49,850 bases of DNA from an uncultured Desulfobacteraceae bacterium (GTDB taxonomy: Bacteria; Desulfobacterota; Desulfobacteria; Desulfobacterales; UBA11574): assembly GCA_964502855.1 (NCBI GenBank), contig CAZDAB010000001.1:1-49850 (forward strand). Direction: 5' to 3'. Numbering within the stretch: position 1 is the stretch's first letter; the number at the start of each line of letters is the position of its first letter. Made by a program: the position numbers and the translations under genes. Below are positions 8,761-43,657 of this stretch, piece by piece. The notes under the pieces are model-generated. The model saw nothing but the letters and a program-made list of their open reading frames with translations, was not told the origin of the DNA and did no database searches.

Positions 8761-10110
8761 TTACTTCATGCCCTTTTTTATACTTTCCAGTCTTTCCAAA
8801 AGCGTTTTGGCCTTTTCGATCTCTTTTTCTACATCTTTGTATTTAGGATCAATTGCACAAACGAGTTCCCATTCCCTGACGGCTTCAGCCAATTGCTGGT
8901 TTCCATAGTACGAGAGACCTCTGTTGTAATGGGTTTCCATGTAGATTTCGCCACTTTTCTTGATATAGTCCTGGCACTTCTCACAGTCCTTATTGTAACT
9001 CAAAGATGTTTCAAAGTTCTTTTTAGCTGCCAGATAATCTTCCTTTTCAAACAGGGATATCCCATACTGAAAGTGCGTGCTGTAAAGGTATTCACGGGCG
9101 GATTCGTCATCAGGATTCGCATTTAATACTTTATTGAATTCGACAATAGCGGACGGGTATTCTTTATTATTAAAGTATTCAATACCCAGAGCTCGATAGT
9201 CTGCCGCTTCATCAATGCGCTCTTCCTCTTCCACGCCTTCATCCTTTTTTTCTTCCTCCTCCAAAAGGACGGATTCCGGCGCCTTAACCTCTTCGGTCTT
9301 GATCTCATGTTTTGATGCTAAAAATGGCATTCCCTCTATTTCAGGAACTTTTATTTTTTGCCCCACCTCTATCTGGGTTACATCGGACATGTTATTAAAT
9401 TCAGCTATGATCGGAAACTTTTTATAGTCCCCGTAATATGTCTTAGCTACCATTGAAAGGCTTTCGCCCGGTTTGATTGTGTGAATAATATACTTTTTAC
9501 CCGTCTCAATTTCCTGTTTTTTCGTTAATAAGGGCATTCCCTCTATTTCAGGAACTTTTATTTTTTGCCCCACCTCTATCCGGGTTGCATCGGACATGTT
9601 ATTAAATTTAGCTATAATCGGAAACTTTTTATAATCCCCGTAATATATCTTAGCTACCATTGAAAGGCTTTCGCCCGGTTTTATTGTGTGAATAATATAT
9701 TTCTCTGCGGGGATCTCTGCCCTGGGCTTGATCGCTCTCAAAGCTTCTAAATGATCCGGCTGAAGTTCCAATGTTGTTAAGAACTCTTTACGAGCCAATT
9801 GATATTTCCCCTTTTTGCGTAAATTTAACCCTTCCTGATAGTGTTTTTCCGCCAATATTCGCATATTTTTTTCAAGCAGGTCTTTTTTCTCTATCGCCTC
9901 CTTGTTCTTGGGGTCAACAGTAAGCGCCAGTTTATACTGCTTCAAGGCGGGCACCAGATCGCCTTTGTTTTCATAATCCTGCCCGGTTCGAATATAAGTC
10001 TGAACCAGTTCTTGCTTTTGAGATCCAGTGAGTTTTTCTTTAATCCCGGCACATCCCCCTATCATTACCCCTATCAACACCCCTAAGATAAATATTCTGA
10101 TTTTTTTCAT
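8761..10110 (-). CDS. lipoprotein with TPR repeats flanking two tandem LysM domains
   Basis: Lipobox MIGGCAG. Two near-identical LysM modules (YIIHTIKPGESLSMVAK.YYGDYKKFPIIA.FNNMSD...IEVGQKIKVPEIEGMP). TPR-like repeats at both ends. Confidence 0.8.
   Translation of the reverse strand: MKKIRIFILGVLIGVMIGGCAGIKEKLTGSQKQELVQTYIRTGQDYENKGDLVPALKQYKLALTVDPKNKEAIEKKDLLEKNMRILAEKHYQEGLNLRKKGKYQLARKEFLTTLELQPDHLEALRAIKPRAEIPAEKYIIHTIKPGESLSMVAKIYYGDYKKFPIIAKFNNMSDATRIEVGQKIKVPEIEGMPLLTKKQEIETGKKYIIHTIKPGESLSMVAKTYYGDYKKFPIIAEFNNMSDVTQIEVGQKIKVPEIEGMPFLASKHEIKTEEVKAPESVLLEEEEKKDEGVEEEERIDEAADYRALGIEYFNNKEYPSAIVEFNKVLNANPDDESAREYLYSTHFQYGISLFEKEDYLAAKKNFETSLSYNKDCEKCQDYIKKSGEIYMETHYNRGLSYYGNQQLAEAVREWELVCAIDPKYKDVEKEIEKAKTLLERLESIKKGMK
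9326..9701. repeat. near-identical tandem duplication (207-bp period, ~169 bp conserved per copy) inside the LysM lipoprotein gene
   Basis: ggcattccctctatttcaggaacttttattttttgccccacctctatc... occurs at 9326 and again at 9533. Only a handful of mismatches are seen across each copy. Confidence 0.9.
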
Positions 10111-10117
10111 AATGATC

Positions 10118-11134
10118 TCACTTTAATGAAATTTTATGGAAACTTTTCAAAACGGAAACAAAAGTCTTCATATCCCTTTTCAATATCTGGGTCCTCCTCA
10201 AGGTAAGCGGATCGGCAAAAAATGGGTTGCTCCCCTTTTTTACCGTCACCGCAACCCGATAACCTAAGCGTCTGGTTATTTCTAACACATTTTGATTGTG
10301 TCGTCCATAAGGAAAAGCCAGAAAAATGGTATTTTGTTTCAGCTTCTTATCGATGATCTGTTTGGATACACGGAGTTCCTTTTCAATCCTATCCATAAAC
10401 GCCGAGGTATCTTCGCCTTCCTTCTGCCGGGTGAGGTCGCTGTGAAATACCGTATGTCCACCAATCTCAAAACCGTCTGCTTTCATTATACCGAGTTGCT
10501 TCCAGGTCAGGGAGTTTTTGCATGCATTTATGAAGTCGGTATAAATAAACAATGTGGCATGAAAACCATATTTTTTCAGAATAGGGTAACAAACATCATA
10601 GACGGATCTATAACCATCATCAATGGATATAATCACCGCCTTTTTGGGAATGGCATGACGATATTCAAGAAAATCAATAAGTTGTCTAAAGCTTATGACT
10701 CTGTAGCCATTTTCATAGAGGTATTTCATCTGTTGTTCAAAAATATGGGCAGGCATGCAAAGCGGAGATCTACAATCGTTTGCAAAACGGTGGTAACAAA
10801 GAATAGGAACAACCTGAAATCCATTCGCCGTTAGTCCCCCTATATTTGTCTCTTTGAGGGGAATAATAATCATCTTATTTTTTTCAAAAGAAACATCCTC
10901 ATTGGCGTCCTCTATTACCCAGAATTTTTTTCTATCCCCGAGATATTTTTCAGCCAGTGTTTCCGGCGTTTCTTTATCTTGGAGTTGACAAATAATATAG
11001 TCATTAGATTGAAAAATACCGGCAGTTTTAGCAGTTTTAAAAGTGGCACAGGAGATAAAGAAAAACCATCCAACTGTGCATATAAACAAGGTAATTACTG
11101 AACGTTTAAGTCTGTTAGCCCTCAAACCTTTCAA
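10118..11134 (-). CDS. polysaccharide deacetylase (CE4/NodB-type, PgaB-like) lipoprotein with an N-terminal LysM-like segment
   Basis: CE4 motifs ISIDDGYRSVYD, ATLFIYTDF, IGGHTVFHSDL and AFPYGRHN. TTG start preceded by GGAGGA. Lipobox-like FFISCAT. Confidence 0.85.
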   Translation of the reverse strand: MKGLRANRLKRSVITLFICTVGWFFFISCATFKTAKTAGIFQSNDYIICQLQDKETPETLAEKYLGDRKKFWVIEDANEDVSFEKNKMIIIPLKETNIGGLTANGFQVVPILCYHRFANDCRSPLCMPAHIFEQQMKYLYENGYRVISFRQLIDFLEYRHAIPKKAVIISIDDGYRSVYDVCYPILKKYGFHATLFIYTDFINACKNSLTWKQLGIMKADGFEIGGHTVFHSDLTRQKEGEDTSAFMDRIEKELRVSKQIIDKKLKQNTIFLAFPYGRHNQNVLEITRRLGYRVAVTVKKGSNPFFADPLTLRRTQILKRDMKTFVSVLKSFHKISLK

Positions 11135-11201
11135 AAGATATCCTCCGGTAAAAACATCCGTGTAAATGAATTAAAAAAATAGCAGTCGTTCACGGGGCAA
11201 T

Positions 11202-13175
11202 CTACCAAATATGAATTTTATCCCCTATTTTTGATAGGTTGTCAATGTTTTCTCTTAATTTATCGTCCGGCTTTATCGGCCGTCTCTGGTTTTTAATATG
11301 TCCGTAACTGAATTCAGGCTCTATCTTTACCACATGAACCTGAGCAATAACCGAGGGATCAGGCTGAAAACTTTTCCCCTTATATACAACCGGAGCACTT
11401 TCCTCGATAACATTAAATATCGTACCGGTAACCACCCCTTCACGAGCGCCGAGATTAACAAGAACCTGGTGACCGGAAACCTCGACCACATAAGCCTGCA
11501 TGGGATAATGCAAAATAATGTTGGTAAGAATCTCACGATTTAGCCAGTGCATATCTTTTTTTACCGTTATCTCGGAAGAAAATTGCCGGGTAATTACGTT
11601 GGATTTCTCTGACCTATCCGTATCCATCATGTTTATTTTTAAAAGCGGTCCACCGGGAAGATAATAAACAGACCCTTTGACAAGAAGTGTTGCACCCAGT
11701 GCTCTGGCCAGTCTTAACGTGGTTTCTTTGTCCGCCAGATCCTTTTGATCAAGTCCCAGCGCTTTAACTAAGCGCTCAACCAGGATTCTGCCAACGACTT
11801 GTACCCTCCCGGATGCCTCAAGCTGACGGGTAAGCTGTGCAGAGATTACCGCAACAAATCCGTCTCTTTCAGCCAAGCCGCCCGTTTCCATAAAATCAAA
11901 AAATGACAGTATAACGGCCCGGGATGTCCACGAGTCTTCACCGGAAACATCCTCTTTGATCCCACCGTTATATCTGGCAACCAGTTCTTTGACTTTATCA
12001 TCCAGCATTCTCTTTTTTTCAAGATCCTTTTCGATAAGAAGTCTTTTCTGGGCATTGTCGGCAAGAACCGTTGCGAAAGGATCATTGGGGTCAACGGCCT
12101 GAGCTTTGCGATAGGCTTCAAGTGCCTTTTCCCAATTTCCCTCCCTTTCATAGGTCAATCCCTTGTTTGAGGTGGCCTCAATATAATACGGGTCGATGGC
12201 AACAGCCTGATCATACAACTCCCGAGATTTTTTGTAGTTTCCGCGACCGGCATGGATCCGCCCCAGCTGATTGTATGCCACCGCACTCTGGTAGGGTTCC
12301 GATCCCTTTTTCCGAACAGCTTTTTTATATTCATCCTCAGCTTCCTTGACCTTATTCTGGCGGTATAAAAGATTTCCTTTAACCACATGGACCTGTGCTC
12401 TGTCAGCGGCCTTTTCCTCGACCTCCCTTGCCACCTTAAGCGCTTTTTCAGTTTGTCCTTTTTTAGCATAAACCGTGGATAGCCCTTCTTTTCCCAGAAC
12501 CTCCGCCTCTCCCTTTTTTCTGGAAAGATTGTAAAACGTTTTTTCTGCCTCATCCAACTTTCCCTCTTTCAGTTCCGCATACCCCTGTACGGTTTTAGCC
12601 CTTACGTTTTTCGGATTCTTTTTCACCACTTTTTCGCTGATTGCCAGGGCTATTTTCGTCTGCTTTCGCTGCAGTTTGCGTTCGGCCAGCTTTACCAGCA
12701 TAACCTCAGTGGTTCTGCCGCCGCCTTGAAAATAATCGAGCAGTTTTAAATCGGGCCCTAAAATGCAAATCGTCGGAAGAATCAGCCGGGCATGATAAAG
12801 ATCACTCACTCCTGACGAGTCGATCAGAACCGGAAAAGACGGCTGAAGGGTTGCTATAAATTTATTGACCTTATTTGTTGAAGACCGTGTCACTCCCCAT
12901 ACCATCAAGTCGGCATCTTTGTATTGTTTTGACAGTTGATCGATATTCAACAGGCCTTCCTGGCTGGGCCTTGAGTCAACATCAAAAAAATAAATGATGA
13001 CCATGGGCTGATTTTTCATACTTGACAAATCATAATTTTTTCCCTTTACATCTTTCAGCGAAAACAAGGGAACATGCTGACCCCCCGGAAGCTGGCTGTA
13101 ACAAATACCGGCTGTTGCGACCAGAAAAATCGCTGAAATGAAAAAACAACAAAATATTCTTAATACCGGTTTCAT
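11202..13175 (-). CDS. exported multi-domain protein: thioredoxin/TlpA-like fold lacking the CxxC, then TPR repeats, then a C-terminal region of unassigned fold
   Basis: Signal-like N-terminus. TlpA/redoxin-like layout (PLFSLKDVKGKNYDLSS...PMVIIYFFDVDSRPSQEG...FPVLIDSSG) with SRPS where WCxxC is expected. Multiple TPR-like repeats. Strong RBS GAGGAGGAAG. Confidence 0.7.
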   Translation of the reverse strand: MKPVLRIFCCFFISAIFLVATAGICYSQLPGGQHVPLFSLKDVKGKNYDLSSMKNQPMVIIYFFDVDSRPSQEGLLNIDQLSKQYKDADLMVWGVTRSSTNKVNKFIATLQPSFPVLIDSSGVSDLYHARLILPTICILGPDLKLLDYFQGGGRTTEVMLVKLAERKLQRKQTKIALAISEKVVKKNPKNVRAKTVQGYAELKEGKLDEAEKTFYNLSRKKGEAEVLGKEGLSTVYAKKGQTEKALKVAREVEEKAADRAQVHVVKGNLLYRQNKVKEAEDEYKKAVRKKGSEPYQSAVAYNQLGRIHAGRGNYKKSRELYDQAVAIDPYYIEATSNKGLTYEREGNWEKALEAYRKAQAVDPNDPFATVLADNAQKRLLIEKDLEKKRMLDDKVKELVARYNGGIKEDVSGEDSWTSRAVILSFFDFMETGGLAERDGFVAVISAQLTRQLEASGRVQVVGRILVERLVKALGLDQKDLADKETTLRLARALGATLLVKGSVYYLPGGPLLKINMMDTDRSEKSNVITRQFSSEITVKKDMHWLNREILTNIILHYPMQAYVVEVSGHQVLVNLGAREGVVTGTIFNVIEESAPVVYKGKSFQPDPSVIAQVHVVKIEPEFSYGHIKNQRRPIKPDDKLRENIDNLSKIGDKIHIW

Positions 13176-13204: not shown

Positions 13205-14485
13205 TTATTCAATAGGTATTAAACGCACATTCAGGGGAGTTTCGCCGGGGTTGCTAATCTGCAGCTGTGCCTCCCACTCAAGATAATCCGGAAGGCTGAC
13301 CCGAACTTCGTATTTCCCAATTGGAATTTCAAGGTTTATGGGGGTATTGCCTTTAAGTGAATCATTTAAAAAAACTTGAGCCCCGGAAGGTGAACTGGTC
13401 ACCATTAGAATTGCATCTACAGGCTTGTTCGCCTCGACACGGGTCGATAAGGAAGATTCAGATTTACCTGTAGTATCCTGCAATTTGGCAGGTTGAAACG
13501 ATTCCGTTACAGCAGATTTTTCGCCATTCGACAGTAATGACGCCTGCTTTTTATGTGCTCCAAAAAAATAGATTGCCCCTCCAAGAACAACTGCCGCCAT
13601 TAGACCCATAATTAAAACAGATGCCACAGGTTTTTTTTTGGGGCTTACCGGTTTTTCGGAGAATAAAAGAAATTCTTTTACCTGAAGACAGGTTTTAAGG
13701 GCATCGCCCATTTCCTTACCGGTTTGAAAGCGTTCATCGGGATTTTTAGATAGGGCTTTCATGATTAGATCAGAGAGCGACTGGGGGATTGACGTGTCAA
13801 TTTTTAAAGGTGCCACGGGAATGTCATCTGTAATGGCCCTGAAGATGGCAGTAAAATGATCTCCCTCAAACGGCTTACGACCCACAATCAATTCATAAAG
13901 GACAACTCCAAGGGAAAACAGATCAGATCGCCCGTCAATCCTTTTCCCCATAACCTGCTCCGGTGACATATAGAAAGGGGTCCCTAAAATCACTCCTGTC
14001 TGGGTTTGTTGAGCCGCATTTGAATCTTCTGCACGGGCAATCCCGAAATCGGTTAGTTTTACCCCCCCCTCATCAGTCAATATAATATTGGAGGGTTTAA
14101 TATCCCTGTGGACAATCCCTTTATTATGAGCATAGCCAAGAGCATGTGCGACCTGTAAAGCAATATCGATTATTTCCTCGACATTCAATCTTCCACTACG
14201 AATCACTTCATTAAAGGCTTGCCCCTGAAGATATTCCATAGCAATGTAAATGGTTCCATGGTCTCGCCCGACATCATATACCGTAACGATATTGGGATGA
14301 GAAAGTCGACCGATGAATTTTGCCTCTTTAAAAAACCGCGACACAAACTCTTCGTTGACCACGCGGTCCACCCGTAACACCTTTAACGCAACCGGTCGGT
14401 CAATCTGAGGATCGTGGGCTTGATAAACCACGCCCATCCCGCCTTTGCCCAATTCTTTTATAATTTCATATCGTCCGTATTTCAT
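13205..14485 (-). CDS. Hanks-type Ser/Thr protein kinase with one TM helix and a C-terminal extracytoplasmic PEGA domain
   Basis: Kinase motifs GKGGMGVVY, VALK, HRDIKPSNIIL, DFGIA and SPEQ. TM helix VLIMGLMAAVVLGGAIYFF. PEGA-like SSPSGAQVFLNDSLKGNTPINLEIPIGKYEVRVSLPDY. Confidence 0.9.
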   Translation of the reverse strand: MKYGRYEIIKELGKGGMGVVYQAHDPQIDRPVALKVLRVDRVVNEEFVSRFFKEAKFIGRLSHPNIVTVYDVGRDHGTIYIAMEYLQGQAFNEVIRSGRLNVEEIIDIALQVAHALGYAHNKGIVHRDIKPSNIILTDEGGVKLTDFGIARAEDSNAAQQTQTGVILGTPFYMSPEQVMGKRIDGRSDLFSLGVVLYELIVGRKPFEGDHFTAIFRAITDDIPVAPLKIDTSIPQSLSDLIMKALSKNPDERFQTGKEMGDALKTCLQVKEFLLFSEKPVSPKKKPVASVLIMGLMAAVVLGGAIYFFGAHKKQASLLSNGEKSAVTESFQPAKLQDTTGKSESSLSTRVEANKPVDAILMVTSSPSGAQVFLNDSLKGNTPINLEIPIGKYEVRVSLPDYLEWEAQLQISNPGETPLNVRLIPIE

Positions 14486-14643: not shown

Positions 14644-15372
14644 TCATAGTATTTCAGCGAGAACCACTGTGATATTATCCTTTCCTCCGGCGGATATGGC
14701 CATTTCAATAAGTTTTTCAGTCTGTTGGGGCAAGGCAATGTCTGAATAAAGGACCTGGCCGATGAGATGGTCATCGATCATATCGGTCAGGCCGTCTGAG
14801 CAGAGAAGAAACAGATCGCCGGAATACGTTTTCCCTTTTAAAATATCGAGAGCTAAATTTTCATTGATGCCCACGGCTCGCAGGATGACGTTGCGAAGGG
14901 AATGGCTTTTAGCTTCTTCAGGTGTAATCAACCCCTGATCTATCTGGTCCTGCACAAGAGAATGATCCTTGGTAAGCTGCTTAAGTTGACCATTCCGGAT
15001 ACGGTAGATTCGGCTGTCTCCAATATGGCCGATTAAAAAGCCGTGCTCGTGAAAAGCCACGAGTTCAGCGGTGCAGCCCATTCCCTGGTGATGGGGATTC
15101 TCCCTTACATACTCTAAAATCCTTTCATGGGCGGAACGGAACGTCTTTTTAACCTTCTCAAGCATGTTATCTTCAGATTGATCATTATCGGCTGAAAAAA
15201 CTTCAAGTGCTGTTTCAGTAAACATTCGACTGGCCAATTCACCGGCGGCAGCACCGCCCATTCCATCCGACACAAGGCAAAATCCAATATCAGGTTTGAT
15301 GAGAAACGTATCTTCGTTATTCGGGCGAATAAGCCCAACATCTGTTTTTCCAAAATAATTTATTTTTGACAT
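14644..15372 (-). CDS. PP2C-family Ser/Thr protein phosphatase (Stp/PppA-like)
   Basis: PP2C motifs RPNNEDTF, VSDGMGG, GCTAEL, IGDSRIY, LLCSDGLTD and GGKDNITVV. Confidence 0.9.
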   Translation of the reverse strand: MSKINYFGKTDVGLIRPNNEDTFLIKPDIGFCLVSDGMGGAAAGELASRMFTETALEVFSADNDQSEDNMLEKVKKTFRSAHERILEYVRENPHHQGMGCTAELVAFHEHGFLIGHIGDSRIYRIRNGQLKQLTKDHSLVQDQIDQGLITPEEAKSHSLRNVILRAVGINENLALDILKGKTYSGDLFLLCSDGLTDMIDDHLIGQVLYSDIALPQQTEKLIEMAISAGGKDNITVVLAEIL

Positions 15373-15419: not shown

Positions 15420-17054
15420 TTAGGTCGTTTCTTCGGTTGCTCCGAAGTTCTTCCTCATGAATTCTGAAAGATCGGAGGCATCGTAAGATTTATTCAATTT
15501 ATTTCTCAGGATTATCAGATCATTATGGATTTCCTGCGTGGTTTGATACCTTAATTTTTTATCTTTTTCCAAACATTTCATCACAATTCTGTTTAGCGCT
15601 TCCGGGATATCCGGCCTTAGGCTGATCAGAGGGGGAATCTCTATTTTAGGAATGGAGCGAATGGCCTCTATATGATTATCAAATCGATACACCTTATTAT
15701 AGGAAAGTATTTCATAAAAGACGAGCCCCAGTGCATAGATATCAGCCTGATGGTCTACCTCCTGCCCCAGTACCTGTTCAGGAGCCAAATAAGATAGTTT
15801 TCCTTTAATTACACCGGCCTGGGTCATACTGGGCTCAGAACGTGCTTTGGAAATTCCAAAATCGGCTATTTTCACTTCTCCTAGAAATGAAATCAGCATG
15901 TTTTGGGGGCTTATATCCCGATGTACAATATGTAACGGTTCGCCACTTCTATCATCCTTTCTTGTATGGGAGTACGTCAGTCCCATACATATTTTCATTA
16001 TAATAAAAATGGAAAGATCAACAGGAAGCCCTTGTTTTAAGTGCGCCATGATTTCACCCAGGTTTTTTCCCGGAATATAGTCCATTGCAATTAAATAAGC
16101 GTTCTGTATCTTACCGAAATCAATAATCTGGACGATGTTTGGGTGTTGTAGCAACGCGGCGAGCCTGGCTTCACGAATAAACATTTTTATAAAATCTTGG
16201 TTTTCGGATAGGTGGGGAAGTATTTTTTTAATGGCAACCGTTCTCCGAAAACCATCTTCACGAATGTAGTCCGCGATAAACAGCTCGGCCATTCCGCCCT
16301 TTGCGATCTGCTTTATTAACACATAAGGACCGATTTTTACCATTCCTTCGACTTCTTTCCGAATTTTTCTTGCTTTTGCCCGGAAGATACGATCAACAAA
16401 AAATAAAATCACCGCCGCCAGAATGGTGCTAAGGAACAGCATTGACAAAAATATCATCCGGAATCTGCTTAACGCATGGTTAAGTTCCGTGGAAGACATC
16501 ACGTAATATACCTTGCCGATTTTTACCCCGGAATAGGAGATATCTTGGGAAAAGCGGAAAAGCGGTTTATTGTCATCTCCTCCTTTTCCGGTCTCAATAT
16601 ATACACCATCAACGATTTTTACCTCTCTTAAATCCTTAAAAGACATCAATGGACGGTTGGTCATCTCAGGGTCGGAGTGCGCCAGGACCTTATTTTTGTG
16701 GTCAAGGATCGCCGCAAAAACCAGATTTTTGTTTTTTGCAAATTCCCCGATAGCAACATTCAAAGTAAGTACATCTTTTGCCAGCAACGAGGAACTGGTT
16801 TTTGCAGACAGGCTCTGGGTCGCAGATATCCCTTTTTGATAAAAATCATTTTTCAGGCCCGTTACAGCATTGTGGTATATTAAAAAGCCGCATACATTAA
16901 TGATTAGCCAGGAGGTAAGACATATAACAATGCTTTTTTTGTTCCGTTTAACAAACTCAATACTAAATAGTTTTTTGGAAATAGCAGAAAAGGTTTTTGT
17001 TGAAAATTGTTTTACCCATAACATAGTCGTTGAAACTTTTTCACTAACACTCAT
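15420..17054 (-). CDS. Hanks-type Ser/Thr protein kinase with an N-terminal TM-flanked extracytoplasmic sensor-like domain
   Basis: Kinase motifs AKGGMAELF, VAIKK, HRDISPQNMLI, DFGISK and APEQ. An N-terminal ~200 aa is bounded by two TM helices. I prefer ATG 17054 (RBS GGGGAG) over the tracked TTG 17090. Confidence 0.85.
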   Translation of the reverse strand: MSVSEKVSTTMLWVKQFSTKTFSAISKKLFSIEFVKRNKKSIVICLTSWLIINVCGFLIYHNAVTGLKNDFYQKGISATQSLSAKTSSSLLAKDVLTLNVAIGEFAKNKNLVFAAILDHKNKVLAHSDPEMTNRPLMSFKDLREVKIVDGVYIETGKGGDDNKPLFRFSQDISYSGVKIGKVYYVMSSTELNHALSRFRMIFLSMLFLSTILAAVILFFVDRIFRAKARKIRKEVEGMVKIGPYVLIKQIAKGGMAELFIADYIREDGFRRTVAIKKILPHLSENQDFIKMFIREARLAALLQHPNIVQIIDFGKIQNAYLIAMDYIPGKNLGEIMAHLKQGLPVDLSIFIIMKICMGLTYSHTRKDDRSGEPLHIVHRDISPQNMLISFLGEVKIADFGISKARSEPSMTQAGVIKGKLSYLAPEQVLGQEVDHQADIYALGLVFYEILSYNKVYRFDNHIEAIRSIPKIEIPPLISLRPDIPEALNRIVMKCLEKDKKLRYQTTQEIHNDLIILRNKLNKSYDASDLSEFMRKNFGATEETT

Positions 17055-17099
17055 AATTTTCTCCCCGCCATTGCAGACAATCGTGGCCAATAATACCGG

Positions 17100-17981
17100 T
17101 TATCCAACAGCAAGTTTTTTTATGATTTCAGTGCATCGAAAAATCACCTGACGCTTCAGCCACCCCAAGTCTTCTCTATTTGAAACTTCTGACAGACGAA
17201 TCCCTTTCAAAGGTCGAAATCCGACCGGATTAAATCCATCCTGCACTGATTTGACAATTAGAAATTTGTCCAGATTAATATGGGAAAAACGTTCCCGAGA
17301 GAATGGTTGTTCTGCCCCGCATAAGGGACAGGACATATTTGAATTTTCAATAAATGCACGGGTAAAAGAGACTTTTGGACCATATCGGGCTTTCAATGCA
17401 TCCGTGATCGGCCTGAAGCCTTTAAAATAAAGGCCGGTCAGTACAAACACCAGTATGATAAAGCTAGAAATAGAAATGAGAATAAATCCATACCTAATTC
17501 TATTTATCCAGTCTGCAGAATAACTCAGATAAAATTTGCCGATTCGGGTTGCGGCATAAATTATATCAGTAGAAAAATTGATGGTCCGACGATGACGGTT
17601 GGAAGAGCCTTCCCAAACGGATACATGATCCGAGCTGGACACACCTTCACTTTTAAGCGGTACGAGCTGGTTAGGATCGGTATAGGCAATAATTTTATTT
17701 TTATGATCCATAATGGAAGCATACGACACACCCGGTCTTTTTTCCACATCCTGTAGTATCTTTCTTAAGGACGTTACATCACGCTCAAGAAGCGGCAAGC
17801 TTGTTTTACCGGTAACTTCATGCAGCAATGCCACCCCGGATTGAGTAATATGGTTTTTGAACTTTTCTATCTTAAAGGAAATAATTACATACCCAATGAC
17901 GATAACCAACCACCATATTGCCACACACAGAAAAAGACGACTCTTTTTTATACTGCCCGTATCTTTCTTTTTAAAGTTCAT
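17100..17981 (-). CDS. membrane protein carrying a paralogue of the kinase sensor domain, plus a cytoplasmic tail with a CPLC motif
   Basis: Aligns by eye to the N-terminal domain of the downstream kinase: LLERDVTSLR/LLAKDVLTLN, ASIMDHKNKIIAYTDPN/AAILDHKNKVLAHSDPE, FSTDIIYAATRIGKFYLSYS/FSQDISYSGVKIGKVYYVMS. Two TM helices. Confidence 0.65.
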   Translation of the reverse strand: MNFKKKDTGSIKKSRLFLCVAIWWLVIVIGYVIISFKIEKFKNHITQSGVALLHEVTGKTSLPLLERDVTSLRKILQDVEKRPGVSYASIMDHKNKIIAYTDPNQLVPLKSEGVSSSDHVSVWEGSSNRHRRTINFSTDIIYAATRIGKFYLSYSADWINRIRYGFILISISSFIILVFVLTGLYFKGFRPITDALKARYGPKVSFTRAFIENSNMSCPLCGAEQPFSRERFSHINLDKFLIVKSVQDGFNPVGFRPLKGIRLSEVSNREDLGWLKRQVIFRCTEIIKKLAVG

Positions 17982-18421: not shown

Positions 18422-19330
18422 ATGATGAATAGACCGGTTATTGTTATGCAGCTTATTCATATTGAGGGGCCTTTGAAAGGCGAAATCCAGGAATTTTCTA
18501 ATCCTGAAATCTCCATTGGAAGGCATCCGTCCTGTCACATTCAGTTTCCCAAAGACGTAAAAATTGTTTCCCGAAAACATGCCCAGATTATCCGGGAGGG
18601 GAATCGGTTTAAACTGATTAATCATAGCCAAAACGGAACATTTTTAAACGGAAAAAGAATCCCGGAAGCGTATTTAAAAGACGGGGACGTGCTGATTTTT
18701 GCCCAAGGCGGGCCAAAGGTTAGTTTTTTAACAAAAATTGAAGCGGGTCAGACGGATATCGATATCGTAACACCCGTTACACCGGTGCCACCTCAGATGC
18801 CTCCGGAAATGCCTCCGGCAGTCCCCTCTGCTGAACCGCCCCCGGTGCCGCCGATCCAACCAAAACCACAGCCTGCTCCTGAAATTTCCATTCAAAAAAT
18901 ACAGGTTCCGCTCATTATACAATACGGCCCTACGCTCCGGTCCTTTAATGAACTGCCCGTTACCATCGGAAAAGGCCCGGGCTGCGATTTTATTCTGGAT
19001 CACCCTTCAGTTTTCGATCAACATGCCCAGCTATTTTTCAGCCAGAATCGATACTGGGTAAAAGACCTTACCGGCCGTCAGTCTGTGTCCATTAACGACC
19101 AGCCAATCAATATTAAATCACCCCTCAATCCCAACAACCAGTTGGCATTGAGTCCACAGGGACCCAGGTTTCGGTTTTTGGAAGGGGGCCGGTTGGCTGA
19201 GATTGAAGAAACTGTCTCCGAATCTCCGGTGGATGAGGCGCCTGTGGAAAAGAAATCCTCACTCCAGACAAAACCCAAAATGGATGGGGCTAAAAAGCCG
19301 GGGTCAATTTTTAAAAAATTATTCTCTTGA
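18422..19330 (+). CDS. cytoplasmic protein with two FHA domains separated by a proline-rich linker
   Basis: FHA1: ISIGRHPSCHIQFPKDVKIVSRKHAQIIREGNRFKLINHSQNGTFLNGKRI. FHA2: VTIGKGPGCDFILDHPSVFDQHAQLFFSQNRYWVKDLTGRQSVSINDQPI. Linker: PVTPVPPQMPPEMPPAVPSAEPPPVPPIQPKPQPAP. Confidence 0.85.
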   Translation: MMNRPVIVMQLIHIEGPLKGEIQEFSNPEISIGRHPSCHIQFPKDVKIVSRKHAQIIREGNRFKLINHSQNGTFLNGKRIPEAYLKDGDVLIFAQGGPKVSFLTKIEAGQTDIDIVTPVTPVPPQMPPEMPPAVPSAEPPPVPPIQPKPQPAPEISIQKIQVPLIIQYGPTLRSFNELPVTIGKGPGCDFILDHPSVFDQHAQLFFSQNRYWVKDLTGRQSVSINDQPINIKSPLNPNNQLALSPQGPRFRFLEGGRLAEIEETVSESPVDEAPVEKKSSLQTKPKMDGAKKPGSIFKKLFS

Positions 19331-19335: not shown

Positions 19336-20853
19336 TCAGCCTTGTAATCTCGCTTTTTCCGAAGCCAGTGGATTATCAAAATTATATCCGAACAGACGGG
19401 GATTTTCACCGATGACTGCGGCAGAGAAAATCGAAAAAACGTAATCATACGTTTGGGCGGGGATCTTATCGCGGTATTGGGAAATCAATTGCCAGAAATT
19501 TCTTTCACGCGGATTTTCGGGCATGGACTCAATCAGTTTAATCACCCGATCTTCGCCCCAATTGTAGGATGCCATTACAAGCAGCCCGGAAGCCTGGGCG
19601 TCCGTGGTATAAATATCCTTCAAGTACCTCGCGGCGGCCAGGGTTGATTTTCTAAAATCGTGGCGGTCATCATCAGGGTCGGGAATGGGTTTGTCGACCA
19701 GGGAGCCCGTATTCAAGTCATATGCCTCGGCGGTTGAAGGGATAAACTGCCACATCCCCTTGGCGATGCCGAACCGAGTTTCCGGGCCGCAGGCATTGGG
19801 GTTTAAATTGCTTTCTTGAAGGGCCAGATAAAAAAATTGCGGCGGCAGGTTATACATAGAAAGGGTCTGAACGATTGTAGGAATGTAACCTCTTGACCTT
19901 GCCCGTTTGATCGCTTGTTCCAGACGGTGGTTTGATTTCCATTTCTCGACATATTTCATGACTTCTTTGACAAATCCTTCGGGCATATTGACTTCACACT
20001 CCCCAAACCGGCGCGACACGTGCAAAATGATCCGCTCCTCCTCACTCAACCCTTTGCGGTACACGTTAAGCGTATCCACAAACCGGTCATAATTTCGTTC
20101 CAATTGCTGTTGTTTGGCCCTGAATTCTTTAATTTGCTTTTTAGACTCGGCGGTCCGGCGCTTTTTGACATCTTTTATCACCTTTCCTACCTCAATTTCC
20201 AGAGTCTTCATGTTGTAGAAAATATCAGCAGCCAGCTCGCGCTGCTGGCGCACTTGTCTATGTTTGTAAACGGCATAACCGCCGGTCAGGATGCACAAAA
20301 CCGCAATAACCGAAATAATTGAGACATACATCCACCGCTGTTTTTTTTTGACCTCGGCATAGGCTCGGCGCACCATCAGAGTATGTTCGCCAGCAGTATC
20401 ATCTGCTGTCTGGCCGAAGTAATGCTCTTTGTAGTCGCTGATCGTTCGGGAATCGGAAACAGGGGATTCGGGAACAGAGGGTTCGAGAACAGGAGGTTCG
20501 GAAACAGGAGGTTCGGAAACAGGGGGTTCTTGCAGCACGGCTTTTTCAAGTTCAAATATAAGGCCAGGCCCGGAAATACCCAAGCGGACGCGGATAGTAC
20601 CGGATAGCGGAAACCGGTCAATTTTGCGGTCTTCGATAAACACCCCGTTACCACTTTCCAGATCTTGAATCCACCAGCGGCCGTCTTCTTTAAACACATC
20701 CGCATGATACCGGCTGACCCCTTTGTTTTTGATCTGCAACTGACAGCTTGAATGCCTTCCGATGCGAAACCGATCTGTAAAAACAAATTCAGTGACAGCA
20801 GCCAATCCGCTTTCAATTCTAACCTTCAGTGTCGGGGCGTCGGAAGATCCCAT
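19336..20853 (-). CDS. FHA domain - single TM helix - SLT-type lytic transglycosylase fusion protein
   Basis: N-terminal FHA (FRIGRHSSCQLQIKNKGVSRYHADVFKEDGRWWIQDLESGNGVFIEDRKI). TM helix WMYVSIISVIAVLCILTGGYAVY. C-terminal SLT motifs LALQESNLNPNA, GIAKGMWQFIPSTA and MASYNWGEDRV. Confidence 0.85.
   Translation of the reverse strand: MGSSDAPTLKVRIESGLAAVTEFVFTDRFRIGRHSSCQLQIKNKGVSRYHADVFKEDGRWWIQDLESGNGVFIEDRKIDRFPLSGTIRVRLGISGPGLIFELEKAVLQEPPVSEPPVSEPPVLEPSVPESPVSDSRTISDYKEHYFGQTADDTAGEHTLMVRRAYAEVKKKQRWMYVSIISVIAVLCILTGGYAVYKHRQVRQQRELAADIFYNMKTLEIEVGKVIKDVKKRRTAESKKQIKEFRAKQQQLERNYDRFVDTLNVYRKGLSEEERIILHVSRRFGECEVNMPEGFVKEVMKYVEKWKSNHRLEQAIKRARSRGYIPTIVQTLSMYNLPPQFFYLALQESNLNPNACGPETRFGIAKGMWQFIPSTAEAYDLNTGSLVDKPIPDPDDDRHDFRKSTLAAARYLKDIYTTDAQASGLLVMASYNWGEDRVIKLIESMPENPRERNFWQLISQYRDKIPAQTYDYVFSIFSAAVIGENPRLFGYNFDNPLASEKARLQG
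20451..20529. repeat. in-frame 15-bp tandem repeat (~5.3 copies) encoding (E)PPVS repeats in the FHA-SLT linker
   Basis: Units aatcggaaacagggg / attcgggaacagagg / gttcgagaacaggag / gttcggaaacaggag / gttcggaaacagggg. Protein: EPPVSEPPVSEPPVLEPSVPESPVSD. Confidence 0.85.
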
Positions 20854-21043: not shown

Positions 21044-21415
21044 TCAGGGGATATCGGTGGTCATCTGCCCCGGAAAAGTGATGGAGATTACGCCACCCCA
21101 TGTGCACATGCACTTGCTCGTGTCATTCAGGGCCGGCGTGTTGCCAATGAGTACGGTCGGTGAACCGGCCGCCCAGGGCGTGGCGGTCACCGGCATGCAT
21201 GGCACCGGCACCCCCAGCGCCGCTATCACGGCCGGGTTCGTGGGGGCGGAGCACATTCCGAATGGCAGAATGTTGACCACAGGGATGTAATCCATTATGT
21301 TTGCCGCAGGCTGGTTATTCACCATCACCCGGTTGACCGGCAGAACAATTAGGGACGCCGGGGCCACACCAAAGCTACACTGCATCATGGCCCCATTAAC
21401 TACCTGTTTTGGCAT
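21044..21415 (-). CDS. DUF4280 (PAAR-like) spike-tip domain protein
   Basis: MPKQVVNGAMMQCSFGVAPASLIVLP... and a C-terminal SKCMCTWGGVISI are typical of DUF4280. RBS GGAAGGAG. Located in the vgrG-adaptor neighbourhood. Confidence 0.85.
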   Translation of the reverse strand: MPKQVVNGAMMQCSFGVAPASLIVLPVNRVMVNNQPAANIMDYIPVVNILPFGMCSAPTNPAVIAALGVPVPCMPVTATPWAAGSPTVLIGNTPALNDTSKCMCTWGGVISITFPGQMTTDIP

Positions 21416-21436
21416 TGTAAAAGACTCCTTCCTATT

Positions 21437-21631
21437 TTACCGGGAATGAAAATTTATCCCGTTAAACGCAAAGCATGGCCCCCATCCTGGCCAGGCCTCG
21501 GTTCCGGCTATAAAACTACTGCCGGGTTTTAGCACAACAAGACCCGCCGGTGACCCGCCCTGTACCCTAACCAGAGGAACACGAGTCCACTCCAAGGAAG
21601 TAGAAGTAACACCCGCTATCTTCTGTCTCAC
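21437..21631 (-). CDS. possible small ORF (64 aa, GTG start) filling the gap between the DUF4123 and DUF4280 genes
   Basis: Its GTG start overlaps the DUF4123 stop as GTGA, a geometry compatible with translational coupling. It ends 21 nt before the DUF4280 start. There is no recognisable motif, so coding status is unproven. Confidence 0.25.
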   Translation of the reverse strand: MRQKIAGVTSTSLEWTRVPLVRVQGGSPAGLVVLKPGSSFIAGTEAWPGWGPCFAFNGINFHSR

Positions 21632-22173
21632 AAATTAACCGCATTCTCAATCAGTTTAGATTGCTCCGTACAAACAAATTCAATCAACTGCTTTTCATTT
21701 TTTCCTTCGGCATAGTAACGCGACACCGCACCAAACATGGTCTCGAGCTGTTCCCGATCGCATGTGGGCAAAAATACGCGCAGTACCCTCGGATCATAAT
21801 ACCTGAAAAAAAGGGTTTTTGCGTCTTCATCGGTGACCCTCAAAAAACTCCGAAAATGATTCCGCAATTTTACAAATGTTGCTGTTGATTCGGCAAATAT
21901 CCCCCAGCTCTTTCCCCACCCCTGATCCAAAAGCCATTGGGTGAACGGATCATCTTCATCAAGCTCAATCAGATATGGTGCAACAGTGGCGAGTTCGCGG
22001 GCCTGTTTCCCGATAAGAAGGCAGTCCTTTTTGTTGTCGGATTCCGCCAGCTTTGGATAGATAACGTTGTCTCTCGCAGCATCCAGTATGGCATATATCT
22101 TACCCTGATCCTGTCTGTCCCTCGACCATAACATCCGCTTTACGGCATTCAAAAAATCATTCGAATCTGACAT
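21628..22173 (-). CDS. DUF4123-family T6SS effector adaptor/chaperone
   Basis: IYAILDAARD, VAPYLIELD, GKSWGIFAES and FFRYYDPRVLRVFLPTC match the DUF4123 pattern. The gene lies immediately downstream of vgrG. Confidence 0.8.
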   Translation of the reverse strand: MSDSNDFLNAVKRMLWSRDRQDQGKIYAILDAARDNVIYPKLAESDNKKDCLLIGKQARELATVAPYLIELDEDDPFTQWLLDQGWGKSWGIFAESTATFVKLRNHFRSFLRVTDEDAKTLFFRYYDPRVLRVFLPTCDREQLETMFGAVSRYYAEGKNEKQLIEFVCTEQSKLIENAVNL

Positions 22174-22227
22174 TTTTAATCCTGTTTTTTCTTTTGAGCC
22201 GGCACGGGCTCATTCGGGTTACGTCGG

Positions 22228-24306
22228 TCATGTTTCACAGAACGGCGTTCCGGATTGTGCCGCCTGATTGAAGGTTAGCGCCTGCGGGGTAAGCTCTGTT
22301 GCCTCAACCTCCGCCGGGGTTAAGCTCGGCAGTTCCGATGTTCTACCGGGTTCGGTCGTATCCGCCTCTTCCGGTTCATCGGGTGAGGCAGGGGAACACC
22401 CGGAACCGGAACCCGCAGACCCGCCGCTGTTGATCATGACCATAGCTCCCGATATGCTGACGCCGGAAGGACCAATATCTATAAAACTGCCGGAGGCTTT
22501 CAATGACACCTGCATGCCGGCTTCTATAACCACCTTAGAACCGCCTTTAATGTGGACATCCCCGTACGCATCAAGCGCATAATTCCCTCCCGCCTTTTCC
22601 AGTATGTCACCGGATTCACTCTGAATAGAAATCGTACCTGATACTTTTTCCTTATGATCCCCACTCACCGTCAGGTTCTTATCTCCATCCACCTTTTCAA
22701 GCTGGTTTTCCGTTATGATCAGGTGGCGGCTTTCGCCCACAAATTCACGGCATTTATCTTTTGCCCGGGTATCCAGCGTTTTTTCCGCTTGAATGAAAAG
22801 CTGTTCCTCGCCGGCTTTATCCTCGAACCGAATTTCATTGACTCCGCCGGTGTCCGGGACAGACATGCTTTTTATGGTTGATCGGGTCTTTTGGTCAGGC
22901 AAAGAATAAGGCGGCGTGTTGCTGCTGTTATAAACACAGCCTGTGATAATGGGCCTGTCAGGATCACTTTCAAGAAAACCCACGATCACTTCATGGCCGA
23001 TGCGGGGAAGAAATAGGGTCCCCCATCCTGCTCCGGCCCAGCTCTGGCTTACGCGAACCCAGCAGGAACTTTTCTCATTGTACTGCCTTGCCCGGTCCCA
23101 GTGGAACTGGACCTTGACCCTCCCATATCCCTCATCATCCGTATGGATTTGTTCTCCTTCGGGGCCCACGACAATAGCCGTCTGAACGCCGGCGATCATG
23201 GGTTTGGGTGTAATTAAGGACGGCCGGTATGGGACATCATGAGGGACACATGTAAAACTGTTGCCATACGTATAAGATGATTGCCCCTCCTGCCCGGAAC
23301 TTCCCGCAGTCTCAGAGGCCCTATGATTTACGCCAGTAATCACATAGGTATGGTCATTTAGTTCATCCCGAAAATGACCGGCAAGATCATACTTGTACCC
23401 GCCTGAGAAGCCTGTGCAGGTACTTGCCCCCGCAAAGGATGTCGTTCGCACCTCCTCTGCCTGCATGCGTATATTGGCCAGTCTTTCCCCCTCGGCTCGT
23501 GTCTTGTATTCTGCCGGGAAATCATATACTTCGCGCTCCCCCGGACCCAGGGGAGTTTGGCAGTTAACCCCAACCATCAAATCCGTATTCGGCGTATCCG
23601 GATTAAAGTCATTTACGGTGTATTTCCCGATTCTGATCTCCTGCCTCTTATCAAGATCGGTTATGACATCGTCCGGGGGTGTTCCTCCCACGCTTAGGGG
23701 ATGAAGCCGAACCGGCTCCGCATAAGGACAATCCGGGTGTTTATCCGGGGCATCCCCTAAAACCATGGTATGCTTCGCGTTTTCGTGTTGGAAAAAATAG
23801 AATATTCCCTCCTGCTCCAGGAGCCTGGAGACAAAATTAAAATCCGTTTCAGCGTACTGAACGCAGTATTCCTTTGGCTCGTAGCTGCCCAGATCCATCC
23901 TGAAGTCGGTAAATCCCTTTTCAGTAAAGACCTGTTCCACGATTTCAGGAACGGTTTTTTCCTGAAATACTCTCGAATTGGTCGTCTTGGTAAGCAGCCA
24001 GAACCACGGAACCAGTGTTGCCGAATAACGCGCCAGGCCAGAGTCCCCGGCGCCGCTATCTTGAGAAAAACGCGATATTAAACCGTTAAAAAATCGCGCA
24101 GTGCCCTCTTCTGTTCCAATGGCAACCGTAACATTTCCTCCGATAATCTGGTCAAATGCAATGCGACTGTTTTCTGACACAAGGCTCATTTCAAAGGAAA
24201 AAGGAACACAAAGTCCTTCGTTTCCCGAAAACCTCGTGAGCAACACAACATCATCACCCAGCGGTGTAGCAATGCGCAGCATTCGATTTTCTTGTGTAAG
24301 CGTCAT
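22228..24306 (-). CDS. vgrG: T6SS spike protein VgrG (TssI)
   Basis: gp27-like N-terminus (LRIATPLGDDVVLLTRFSGNEGLCVPFSFEMSL). gp5 OB region (WVRVSQSWAGAGWGTLFLPRIGHEVIVGFLESDPDRPIITGCVYN). Beta-helix repeats. C-terminal acidic/Pro tail ending AAQSGTPFCET. Confidence 0.95.
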   Translation of the reverse strand: MTLTQENRMLRIATPLGDDVVLLTRFSGNEGLCVPFSFEMSLVSENSRIAFDQIIGGNVTVAIGTEEGTARFFNGLISRFSQDSGAGDSGLARYSATLVPWFWLLTKTTNSRVFQEKTVPEIVEQVFTEKGFTDFRMDLGSYEPKEYCVQYAETDFNFVSRLLEQEGIFYFFQHENAKHTMVLGDAPDKHPDCPYAEPVRLHPLSVGGTPPDDVITDLDKRQEIRIGKYTVNDFNPDTPNTDLMVGVNCQTPLGPGEREVYDFPAEYKTRAEGERLANIRMQAEEVRTTSFAGASTCTGFSGGYKYDLAGHFRDELNDHTYVITGVNHRASETAGSSGQEGQSSYTYGNSFTCVPHDVPYRPSLITPKPMIAGVQTAIVVGPEGEQIHTDDEGYGRVKVQFHWDRARQYNEKSSCWVRVSQSWAGAGWGTLFLPRIGHEVIVGFLESDPDRPIITGCVYNSSNTPPYSLPDQKTRSTIKSMSVPDTGGVNEIRFEDKAGEEQLFIQAEKTLDTRAKDKCREFVGESRHLIITENQLEKVDGDKNLTVSGDHKEKVSGTISIQSESGDILEKAGGNYALDAYGDVHIKGGSKVVIEAGMQVSLKASGSFIDIGPSGVSISGAMVMINSGGSAGSGSGCSPASPDEPEEADTTEPGRTSELPSLTPAEVEATELTPQALTFNQAAQSGTPFCET

Positions 24307-38730: not shown

Positions 38731-39510
38731 CTACCGAGCATCCGTGTGGGCTGACCAGAGTCCGACAAAATCGCTGGCATTTAAAGACCGGTTAAAAACA
38801 GCCAGAAAACGTTTTTCAGGGACTCCACCCAAAAATACCGCATTGGGAACATCTGAACTGTTTACTTTTAACAAAAAGTTCCAACGGCTCGCAATATCAA
38901 GGGGATCTTCGTCGATCTGGATGTCAAGGGGTACCAGACATTCCATTTTTTTAGCCAGGCAATCCGCTTTTTCCTTTATTTGATCATTGTCCTTTGAGAT
39001 TGTCAAGGCGTTAGTCAAAGATTGAAGTTTTCCCTGGTTTCTGCTTTGAGATTTCCATTCCAGCCAGTCAGGCTTAGGGTTCTTAATGGCACAGACCTCA
39101 TATTCCAGCCCCTTTAAATTTTCAAACCGCCTTGAGGATATGTATTCAATCTGATCCCAGGTTGTTTCAAAAGCATGGGGGAGAAGATCCCAATGGTCTT
39201 CCCATCCGTCAAGCATACCATCTCCCATAATAATAAGCGGATAGGGCCGTCCGATACTGTCGCTGCTGTCTTTTGCGACACCGCAAATCAGGTTTCCCTT
39301 TTTTATACCTTTGGCCCAAAAGCGCCAGGAATACATACACTGGGTAGAGAGTTGCTTGCTGCTTAAAACCTGATACCCCTTTTCAACCCATCTTTCAAAT
39401 GCAGCTAACAGGGAGGTGTTCAGGCTTAAACGAAAATAATCCCTTGCCACCGGGTGTTTGCCGCAGGCCGCCCAATTCCATCTGTTTTTGGGTTTTCCTA
39501 TTCCCAGCAT
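38731..39510 (-). CDS. tagF: T6SS-associated protein TagF (DUF2094 family)
   Basis: The N-terminal motif WAACGKHPVARDYF resembles the TagF G-K-x-P-x-x-x-D-[FY] signature. The gene lies immediately downstream of tssM and overlaps it by 13 nt, as in H1-type clusters. Confidence 0.75.
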   Translation of the reverse strand: MLGIGKPKNRWNWAACGKHPVARDYFRLSLNTSLLAAFERWVEKGYQVLSSKQLSTQCMYSWRFWAKGIKKGNLICGVAKDSSDSIGRPYPLIIMGDGMLDGWEDHWDLLPHAFETTWDQIEYISSRRFENLKGLEYEVCAIKNPKPDWLEWKSQSRNQGKLQSLTNALTISKDNDQIKEKADCLAKKMECLVPLDIQIDEDPLDIASRWNFLLKVNSSDVPNAVFLGGVPEKRFLAVFNRSLNASDFVGLWSAHTDAR

Positions 39511-43655: not shown

Positions 43656-43657
43656 AT

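Follow-up and report, generated by a model that had tools for sequence, protein, structure and literature searches.

How most bacteria that build a type VI secretion system (T6SS) pass its large membrane complex through their own peptidoglycan is one of two questions raised by the locus described here, the other being what the T6SS-associated kinase/phosphatase/FHA pathway physically controls. For the first, only TagX and the borrowed enzyme MltE are known so far. The window, i.e., the whole stretch of 49,850 nt that was analyzed, comes from an uncultured Desulfobacteraceae bacterium (contig CAZDAB010000001.1 of assembly GCA_964502855.1) and contains, next to a T6SS cluster, a gene for a protein in which an FHA domain is joined through a transmembrane (TM) helix to an SLT lytic transglycosylase domain (FHA-TM-SLT). 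The in silico evidence establishes a predicted resident, bitopic inner-membrane protein with a phosphothreonine (pThr) reader in the cytoplasm and a family-1 lytic transglycosylase in the periplasm. The protein belongs to a widespread, uncharacterized family that is encoded within a Hanks-kinase/PP2C phospho-signaling module, usually in or beside T6SS-i clusters. A wall cutter encoded in the locus and tethered to a pThr reader would link both questions in one molecule.

Architecture, topology and family of the FHA-TM-SLT protein

The order FHA, linker, TM helix, SLT had been proposed in an initial annotation of the gene, and it stood up to domain analysis. Pfam matches to FHA (PF00498, residues 30–92, E 1.2e-14, 54.9 bits versus a cut-off of 20.7) and SLT (PF01464, E 3.2e-15, 56.1 bits versus a cut-off of 21.3) were both above threshold; the FHA region is also matched by Yop-YscD_cpl, and Pfam shows only these three models in the protein. 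In a hydropathy scan the TM segment listed in Table 1 was the sole hydrophobic peak, and no N-terminal signal-like segment was seen. The AlphaFold2 (AF2) model depicts the FHA part as a β-sandwich (pLDDT about 90), followed after the linker by one long helix (residues 156–232) that runs through the TM segment and then by a helical hairpin and a helical C-terminal domain. In Foldseek searches the FHA part matched mycobacterial FHA domains, with a TM-score of 0.89 for Rv1747 FHA-1 (6ccd), and the full-length model returned FHA matches only. When residues 197–505 were modeled separately (pLDDT 85.5, pTM 0.86), the top matches, in keeping with a lysozyme-like helical fold, were Slt70, P. aeruginosa Slt, phiKZ gp144 and the T7 ejectosome at probabilities of 0.96–1.0, which are nonetheless weak matches (E-values of about 0.01–0.4, low TM-scores) without a close structural twin among them. 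By sequence, the best match of the C-terminal half to a solved structure was the MltD-type enzyme 8rhe (E 4e-13). The ES, GMWQF and YNWG motifs named in the initial annotation were all located, as E347-S348 with the catalytic Glu (codon 19813–19815), GMWQF at 366–370 and YNWGE at 430–434, together with FGECE at 283–287. We thus assign the C-terminal part as a family-1 (GH23), MltD-like lytic transglycosylase domain on a helical stalk, predicted to be periplasmic.

The pThr-contact motifs of FHA domains are G-R, S-x-x-H and N-G. In an alignment of 144 relatives the corresponding residues are nearly invariant: G32, R33 and S47 are each present in 143 members, R48 in 137, H50 in 140, N69 in 141 and G70 in all 144. 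On the enzyme side, E347, S348, G366, W368, Q369, Y430 and N431 were kept in every member, and the motif set E347-S348, G366-M-W-Q369 and Y430-N-W-G433 in 141–144 of the 144. The protein may accordingly be expected to bind pThr and to cleave glycan strands, the architecture, topology, residue conservation and genomic linkage reported here being in silico results. Averaged by region, conservation amounted to 0.15 in the linker, 0.50 in the FHA domain, 0.56 in the juxtamembrane segment and 0.73–0.81 in the SLT domain and C-terminus. The low linker value bears on the (E)PPVS repeat that the initial annotation had included in the architecture. Five such units, beginning at residues 109, 114, 119, 124 and 129 (span 109–133), are indeed present in the window protein and are visible in the DNA as 5.1 tandem copies of 15 nt (20453–20529), but the repeat had to be abandoned as a functional feature, as it varies in length or is missing altogether among homologues that share 84–92% identity with the window protein. 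Repeat and Pro-rich linker as a whole are by all appearances lineage-specific and no feature of the family.

An FHA domain inside and an SLT domain outside is, as judged from the family, the only reasonable topology, because exactly one TM helix was predicted in 80 of 81 members, the mean net charge of the flanking 15 residues was +5.2 on the N-terminal versus +1.0 on the C-terminal side (N>C in 76 of 80 members) and a signal-like N-terminus was found in none of the members checked for topology. The two domains are hence predicted to lie on opposite sides of the membrane, as the initial annotation had proposed.

Two features go beyond that annotation, a conserved juxtamembrane threonine and relatives with exchanged cytoplasmic heads. 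The former, T158 (20380–20382), is Thr in 141 of the 144 aligned members and lies in a motif G-E-H-T-x-M-[VI]-R, with G155 kept in 140 and R162 in 135 of them and V, I or F at position +3 in 129. Bacterial FHA domains prefer pThr in the context T-x-x-[I/V/L]. Since T158 is a near-invariant Thr in a context that resembles this preference, we infer that it is a candidate phospho-acceptor and FHA ligand.

FHA+SLT architecture was found in 118 of the 120 best matches among 90%-identity protein clusters (51–92% identity), the closest named relative coming from Desulfobacteraceae bacterium Eth-SRB2 (91%). When representatives at 50% identity were searched exhaustively, 265 proteins reached E<=1e-30, and a scan of one genome per species found at least 578 relatives. 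The best 80 of these are nearly all close to full length, at 45–88% identity, and their record titles name Desulfobacterales, many Acidobacteriota (Bryobacteraceae, Acidobacteriaceae, Terriglobia), Ignavibacteria, Aminicenantes and Nitrospirae. Among the relatives inspected, the family is mainly one of Desulfobacterota, Acidobacteriota and Ignavibacteria, with identities of 45–55% between phyla. In some relatives the same periplasmic module carries two FHA domains (2xFHA) or a Ser/Thr kinase (STK) domain in place of the single FHA domain. Common to these head variants are FYxMK, FGE[CT], the catalytic E-S, GxWQ and YNxG, i.e., the periplasmic enzyme is intact by its motifs, and the GEHT motif is absent from the kinase-headed relatives. 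Since the FHA domain is swapped for 2xFHA or a kinase, the comparison of sequences ties the periplasmic enzyme to pThr signaling in general. The kinase-headed relatives (proteins P0226, P0241 and P0252; loci L086, L087, L092–L094 and L096) have the layout kinase-TM-stalk-SLT, resembling a receptor kinase whose ectodomain is a lytic transglycosylase with intact catalytic motifs.

Gene neighborhood across loci and in the window

Linkage was surveyed by calling open reading frames (ORFs) in 160 loci drawn from genomes and metagenomes. Counts refer to the 41 FHA-headed loci in which each flank measured 8 kb or more, and genes were scored within 10 kb. Context genes were called with domain-restricted, coverage-filtered profiles seeded from the window's own proteins. 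Full-length iterated hidden Markov models (HMMs) had been discarded for this purpose: they drifted via multidomain proteins, such that PP2C, LysM-TPR and deacetylase gave identical offsets, and the DUF4123 model matched every locus. Their replacement barely moved the headline counts of the genome set (22/26/18/7 became 22/24/17/8).

A T6SS gene was encoded nearby in 25 of the 41 loci (61%), an STK or PP2C gene in 28 (68%) and both in 20 (49%); eight loci had STK/PP2C genes without T6SS genes and five the reverse. The nearest T6SS gene was a median of 820 nt away, and its identity varied with the lineage (TssK, VgrG, TssB/C, TssM or DUF4280). In several Acidobacteriaceae, TssK ends 9–80 nt upstream of the FHA-SLT gene, and in locus L006 the gene is wedged between VgrG and TssBC. 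In 17 loci the next gene downstream was PP2C, on the same strand and at a median gap of 28 nt. T6SS-linked members occurred in 18 of 40 informative 65%-identity subclusters, and the recurrent encoding within T6SS loci expected of a T6SS accessory gene (TAG, in the sense of PMC13584744) was found in multiple phylum-level groups with varying adjacent genes. That the linkage persists despite gene rearrangement argues for functional coupling. The proportion of T6SS-linked loci is in all likelihood far above chance, since most of a genome lies outside its T6SS cluster. The profile-based calls are borne out by contexts annotated independently with Pfam: locus L166 reproduces the window arrangement almost gene for gene, and in L083 the kinase block recurs downstream of the FHA-SLT gene, with VgrG, DUF2169, DUF3540 and a PAAR-like gene on its upstream side. 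In the eight linked loci where TssL was seen it was short throughout (235–252 aa), and no other FHA protein was encoded within the flanks in 24 of 36 T6SS-linked loci.

In the window itself, a complete T6SS-i cluster occupies the minus strand from 24477 to 46422 (a TagH_C-like ORF, TssJ, TssK, short TssL, TssM, TagF, TagJ, TssA, TssB, TssC, Hcp, TssE, TssF, TssG, ClpV, a DUF4157/eCIS_core protein and a fused VipA-VipB-like protein). The FHA-TM-SLT gene lies between the T6SS tip genes and a kinase block, as initially described, with the correction that the convergent 2xFHA gene on the opposite strand intervenes; the latter is a conserved neighbor in Desulfobacterales relatives. Beyond 2xFHA the block comprises, on the minus strand, Cache, Cache-STK, PP2C, STK-PEGA, AhpC/TPR, polysaccharide deacetylase and LysM-TPR. 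Both kinases are predicted to be membrane-anchored, with cytoplasmic catalytic and periplasmic sensor domains, and the last three proteins have signal or lipoprotein-like N-termini. A promoter and terminator scan of 17800–22400 was uninformative, and our statements are limited to gene order and strand, with no claim of an operon.

Table 1. Features of the FHA-TM-SLT gene and its surroundings, in window coordinates.
Feature	Position (nt)	Strand	Details
FHA-TM-SLT gene	19336..20853	-	ATG start, 505 aa plus stop
FHA domain, predicted cytoplasmic, residues 9–102	20548..20829	-	Pfam, AF2, Foldseek, residue conservation
Pro-rich linker, predicted disordered, residues 103–137	20443..20547	-	(E)PPVS x5; AF2, motif scan; disorder modeled at 106–137
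Juxtamembrane segment, predicted cytoplasmic, residues 138–173	20335..20442	-	conserved; Y145 F146 ... G155-E-H-T158-x-M-V161-R162
Single TM helix, predicted, residues 174–196	20266..20334	-	hydropathy, AF2, family topology
Helical stalk or hairpin, predicted periplasmic, residues 197–270	20044..20265	-	conserved F212-Y213; AF2
Lytic transglycosylase module, predicted periplasmic, residues 271–505	19339..20043	-	Pfam SLT at 332–446
T6SS tip genes, directly upstream of FHA-TM-SLT gene	21044..24306	-	VgrG, DUF4123 adaptor, DUF4280/PAAR-like
VgrG	22228–24306	-	
DUF4123	21628–22173	-	
DUF4280/PAAR-like	21044–21415	-	
Soluble protein with two FHA domains (2xFHA)	18422..19330	+	convergent with FHA-TM-SLT gene, 5-nt gap
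Cache-like two-TM membrane protein	17100..17981	-	first gene of kinase block
Membrane Ser/Thr kinase with periplasmic Cache-like domain (Cache-STK)	15420..17090	-	TM 53–71 and 213–231, kinase 260–523
PP2C phosphatase, soluble	14644..15372	-	
STK-PEGA	13205..14485	-	Ser/Thr kinase, TM (287–305), periplasmic PEGA domain
Periplasmic/lipoprotein partners of kinase block	8761..13175	-	LysM-TPR, polysaccharide deacetylase, AhpC/TPR
LysM-TPR	8761–10110	-	
Polysaccharide deacetylase	10118–11134	-	
AhpC/TPR	11202–13175	-	weak LpoB match
T6SS membrane-complex region	38731..46422	-	TagF, TssM, TssL, TssK, TssJ, FHA-less ORF
TssL, short form	42978–43655	-	225 aa, DotU only, TM 190–208
FHA-less TagH_C-like ORF, directly upstream of tssJ	45595–46422	-	275 aa; T6SS_FHA_C sub-threshold, 20.4 vs 23.7 bits
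764-aa ORF	46316–48610	-	no Pfam match; overlaps TagH_C-like ORF
VipA-VipB-like fusion, just upstream of VgrG	24477–26144	-	555 aa; VipA/TssB-like 58–170, VipB/TssC N-terminal domain 248–543

The remark in the initial annotation that TssL lacks a peptidoglycan-binding extension was borne out: a domain and TM scan found no periplasmic peptidoglycan-binding domain in the window TssL, in keeping with the short forms of the linked loci. Inspection of its N-terminus for an Agrobacterium-like phospho-Thr revealed nothing convincing. Only three FHA domains occur in the whole window, one in the FHA-TM-SLT and two in the 2xFHA protein, and a domain scan detected no canonical TagH. The TagH_C-like ORF listed in Table 1 occupies the position that we take to be that of tagH in the P. 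aeruginosa H1-T6SS.

Several further observations concern the surroundings of the gene. LysM-TPR and the deacetylase are kept with FHA-SLT in the Desulfobacterales relatives L081, L083 and L166, and AhpC/TPR recurs in L005, L011 and L014; Ignavibacteria loci carry instead TPR-CsgG/LpoB-like lipoproteins, DcrB, an OmpA-like protein and Trypsin_2 (L064). A Trypsin_2 protease is also encoded on the plus strand of the window (3289–8753), along with an MBOAT and a 994-aa AlgX/SASA protein that together resemble a polysaccharide O-acetylation set, and Trypsin_2 homologues lie near FHA-SLT in L011, L014 and L064. The VipA-VipB-like fusion is devoid of the VipB_2 C-terminal domain and is encoded in addition to a normal TssB (35933–36457) and TssC (34423–35922); similar fusions are found near VgrG or FHA-SLT in L005, L006, L009, L027, L036, L077, L104, L105, L166 and L167. 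Between it and ClpV lies the 430-aa eCIS_core/DUF4157 protein (26190–27482, minus strand), a candidate T6SS effector. Finally, the genes between VgrG and the PAAR-like DUF4280 (here 21415–22228, DUF4123) vary among relatives, with DUF2169, DUF3540, pentapeptide repeats and a Tox-PAAR-like gene in L083 and PG_binding_1 and Big_9 in L166. This interval looks like a cargo-swapping hotspot, since its genes vary while FHA-SLT and the kinase block stay constant.

A proposed mechanism and its rivals

We propose that kinase-dependent, FHA-mediated positioning or clustering of the protein opens the peptidoglycan at the site of T6SS membrane-complex assembly and that PP2C reverses the signal, a proposal whose prospects of being right or wrong we consider evenly balanced. 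Cache-STK and STK-PEGA, the membrane kinases of the neighboring block, would sense a periplasmic cue and set pThr marks on the cytoplasmic side of the membrane, conceivably on the kinases themselves, on T158 of neighboring FHA-SLT molecules or on a T6SS membrane or baseplate subunit. Reading of these marks by the FHA domain would concentrate and position the enzyme at the nascent TssJLM complex, where the SLT domain would then cut glycan strands locally until PP2C resets the system. The recruitment target, the direction of signaling and a requirement of the protein for T6SS assembly are plausible elements of this scheme. A more far-reaching version, covering Desulfobacterota, Acidobacteriota, Ignavibacteria and others, appears to us tentative and rather doubtful: FHA-TM-SLT would be both the T6SS-dedicated peptidoglycan cutter of many environmental lineages and the Fha/TagH equivalent of their Thr-phosphorylation pathway, with inside-out signaling by which one polypeptide would turn cytoplasmic phosphorylation into spatially confined periplasmic wall cleavage. 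This might involve phospho-dependent head-to-tail clustering, the FHA domain of one molecule, or of a 2xFHA partner, binding pT158 of another.

Several points weigh against coupling to the T6SS in particular. The linkage suspected in the initial annotation is recurrent yet not exclusive, as neither T6SS nor STK/PP2C genes were present within 10 kb in 8 of the 41 loci (20%), and the family is thus not T6SS-specific. In D. ovata (L081) the kinase block is retained although Pfam recognizes no T6SS gene within 10 kb, and orphan copies stand beside housekeeping genes in L084 (near kdp) and L168. The two kinase-headed loci with usable flanks have no T6SS genes nearby, a sample too small to generalize; their neighbors include a PG_binding_1 protein, peptidases and a sigma-54 activator. 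The context survey, moreover, reaches ±10 kb only and is built on home-made HMMs. T158 is placed by AF2 at the start of a predicted helix, and the phospho-partners named for the FHA domain are candidates only. Since STK/PP2C genes are linked to the family no less strongly than T6SS genes, the association with the T6SS could be indirect. This leads to a broader reading, in which the SLT domain is the periplasmic arm of a Ser/Thr-kinase envelope circuit, similar to the PASTA kinases with FhaA/FipA in Actinobacteria, and the T6SS is one of several outputs or neighbors. Such a circuit might remodel or probe peptidoglycan, possibly with release of anhydro-muropeptides to be sensed by the Cache/PEGA kinases, or might anchor an FHA scaffold at wall sites (outside-in). 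The loci with STK/PP2C genes alone, the orphan copies and the kinase-TM-SLT fusions with their receptor-kinase topology and non-T6SS contexts are all in line with this reading, as is the further content of the block, where LysM-TPR, polysaccharide deacetylase and TPR/LpoB- or CsgG-like lipoproteins occur with or without a T6SS nearby. We nevertheless regard it as a possible but somewhat unlikely account, given the five loci that combine a T6SS with the lack of STK/PP2C genes, the frequent insertion of the gene between T6SS core genes (e.g., behind TssK or between VgrG and TssBC) and a T6SS linkage that presumably exceeds chance by far, while the invariant catalytic Glu favors an enzyme over a pure sensor.

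Two further explanations were considered. The protein could be a housekeeping MltD-type paralogue that lies next to T6SS and kinase genes by coincidence, in line with the orphan contexts and with database annotation of relatives as 'membrane-bound lytic murein transglycosylase D'. The match to the NCBIfam MltD equivalog (NF008050) is 52 bits versus a cut-off of 508, though, the protein has neither a lipoprotein signal nor a LysM repeat, the FHA fusion with its intact pThr pocket is kept across phyla, and linkage to T6SS and STK/PP2C genes recurs with shuffled gene order, all of which renders this explanation very improbable. Even less credible, indeed barely so, is a peptidoglycan-degrading effector delivered by the upstream VgrG/DUF4123/PAAR-like tip. 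Its appeal lies in the position of the gene, last after VgrG, the DUF4123 adaptor and the PAAR-like DUF4280, in the existence of peptidoglycan-targeting glycoside hydrolase effectors, and in the presence of Tse3 among the weak fold matches. A cytoplasmic pThr-reading FHA domain with a single internal TM helix, on the other hand, is the topology of a resident inner-membrane protein; the next gene downstream is the convergent 2xFHA and nothing immunity-like, many copies adjoin TssK, TssM or PP2C or have no VgrG nearby, and the gene belongs to the constant part of the locus, at the above-mentioned 45–55% identity between phyla. With no delivery-associated N-terminal domain found by Pfam, no immunity gene and no cargo-like variability, we have rejected the effector reading.

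If recruitment of the enzyme by pThr marks proves correct, the family may give these environmental bacteria a means of opening their own wall on cue for the construction of a secretion machine, in phyla where T6SS regulation is almost unstudied. Together with the kinase-fused relatives, it would exemplify Ser/Thr phospho-signaling wired to a peptidoglycan hydrolase across a diderm inner membrane.

Relation to known systems

That the T6SS needs dedicated peptidoglycan enzymes other than TagX and MltE is on record in the literature, and Weber et al. (2016, PMC5061870) predicted that further ones remained to be found. Our search of the full-text literature, with most subscription journals outside its coverage, found no published description of an FHA+SLT protein, and a 2026 review of T6SS accessory genes has no FHA-linked or locus-encoded lytic transglycosylase among those given, in agreement with the impression of the initial annotation that such a coupling had not been described.

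According to the summaries of Santin and Cascales (2017) given in PMC13584744 and PMC9251886, MltE of enteroaggregative E. coli is recruited by TssM of the Sci-1 T6SS. As far as these summaries go, FHA-TM-SLT and MltE are both family-1 lytic transglycosylases for which local opening of the peptidoglycan during assembly of a T6SS membrane complex has been proposed, each next to a TssL without a peptidoglycan-binding domain. MltE, as portrayed there, is an outer-membrane lipoprotein with a housekeeping role whose gene lies apart from the T6SS locus and which the periplasmic domain of TssM recruits; FHA-TM-SLT is, in contrast, encoded in the locus and predicted to be anchored in the inner membrane with a cytoplasmic FHA domain, such that any recruitment or control would come from the cytoplasm via pThr. 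With TagX of Acinetobacter, Burkholderia and Ralstonia (PMC5061870) it shares encoding in the T6SS locus, inner-membrane anchoring and a periplasmic C-terminal catalytic domain acting on peptidoglycan. TagX, however, lacks a signaling domain and, as an L,D-endopeptidase of the LAS/VanY type, cleaves peptide stems, as opposed to a glycan-strand SLT enzyme with an FHA head, and Pfam detected no LAS/VanY L,D-endopeptidase domain in FHA-TM-SLT.

A second line of resemblance leads to TagH/Fha1, which with PpkA and PppA (PMC9251886, PMC13584744) provides the precedent for T6SS loci in which an FHA protein, a Hanks kinase and a PP2C phosphatase are encoded together; the window likewise contains TagF. 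TagH is soluble and has a T6SS_FHA_C domain, whereas the FHA domain here is fused via a TM helix to a putative periplasmic enzyme. Consistently, the TagH model TIGR03354 matched nothing but the FHA region, at 29.4 bits (cut-off 120.25), and T6SS_FHA_C gave no match in the protein. In its catalytic domain FHA-TM-SLT is similar in sequence to MltD (family 1D), both by the solved structure 8rhe mentioned above and by the NCBIfam model PRK10783 (E 3e-14), and the two share the E-S, G-x-W-Q and Y-N-x-G motifs. In place of the lipoprotein signal and C-terminal LysM repeats of MltD it has an N-terminal FHA domain, a TM helix and a helical stalk. Judged by these sequence comparisons, FHA-TM-SLT lies outside the MltD equivalog, TagH and TagX.

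Other trans-envelope machines and signaling systems offer partial parallels. Cytoplasmic FHA or FHA-like domains followed by one TM helix and an extracytoplasmic part are found in FipA and YscD/PrgH, the FHA-like domain of YscD not being known to have a pThr pocket. Mycobacterial PknB-PASTA links pThr signaling to the state of the cell wall, and the kinase-TM-SLT relatives mirror its kinase-TM-PASTA layout. Unlike FHA-TM-SLT, none of FhaA/FipA, PknB-PASTA and YscD/PrgH has a catalytic domain that cleaves peptidoglycan. The lytic transglycosylases VirB1, EtgA/IpgF/IagB and FlgJ/SltF, as far as PMC5061870 cites them, are alike in concept, as they are encoded with, and act for, a trans-envelope nanomachine; in the same account they are secreted or periplasmic, have no cytoplasmic phospho-reader and are not associated with a T6SS. 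FHA-TM-SLT, by its sequence and putatively also in function, fuses two known kinds of protein, the secretion-system-associated lytic transglycosylase and the FHA protein of T6SS phospho-signaling.

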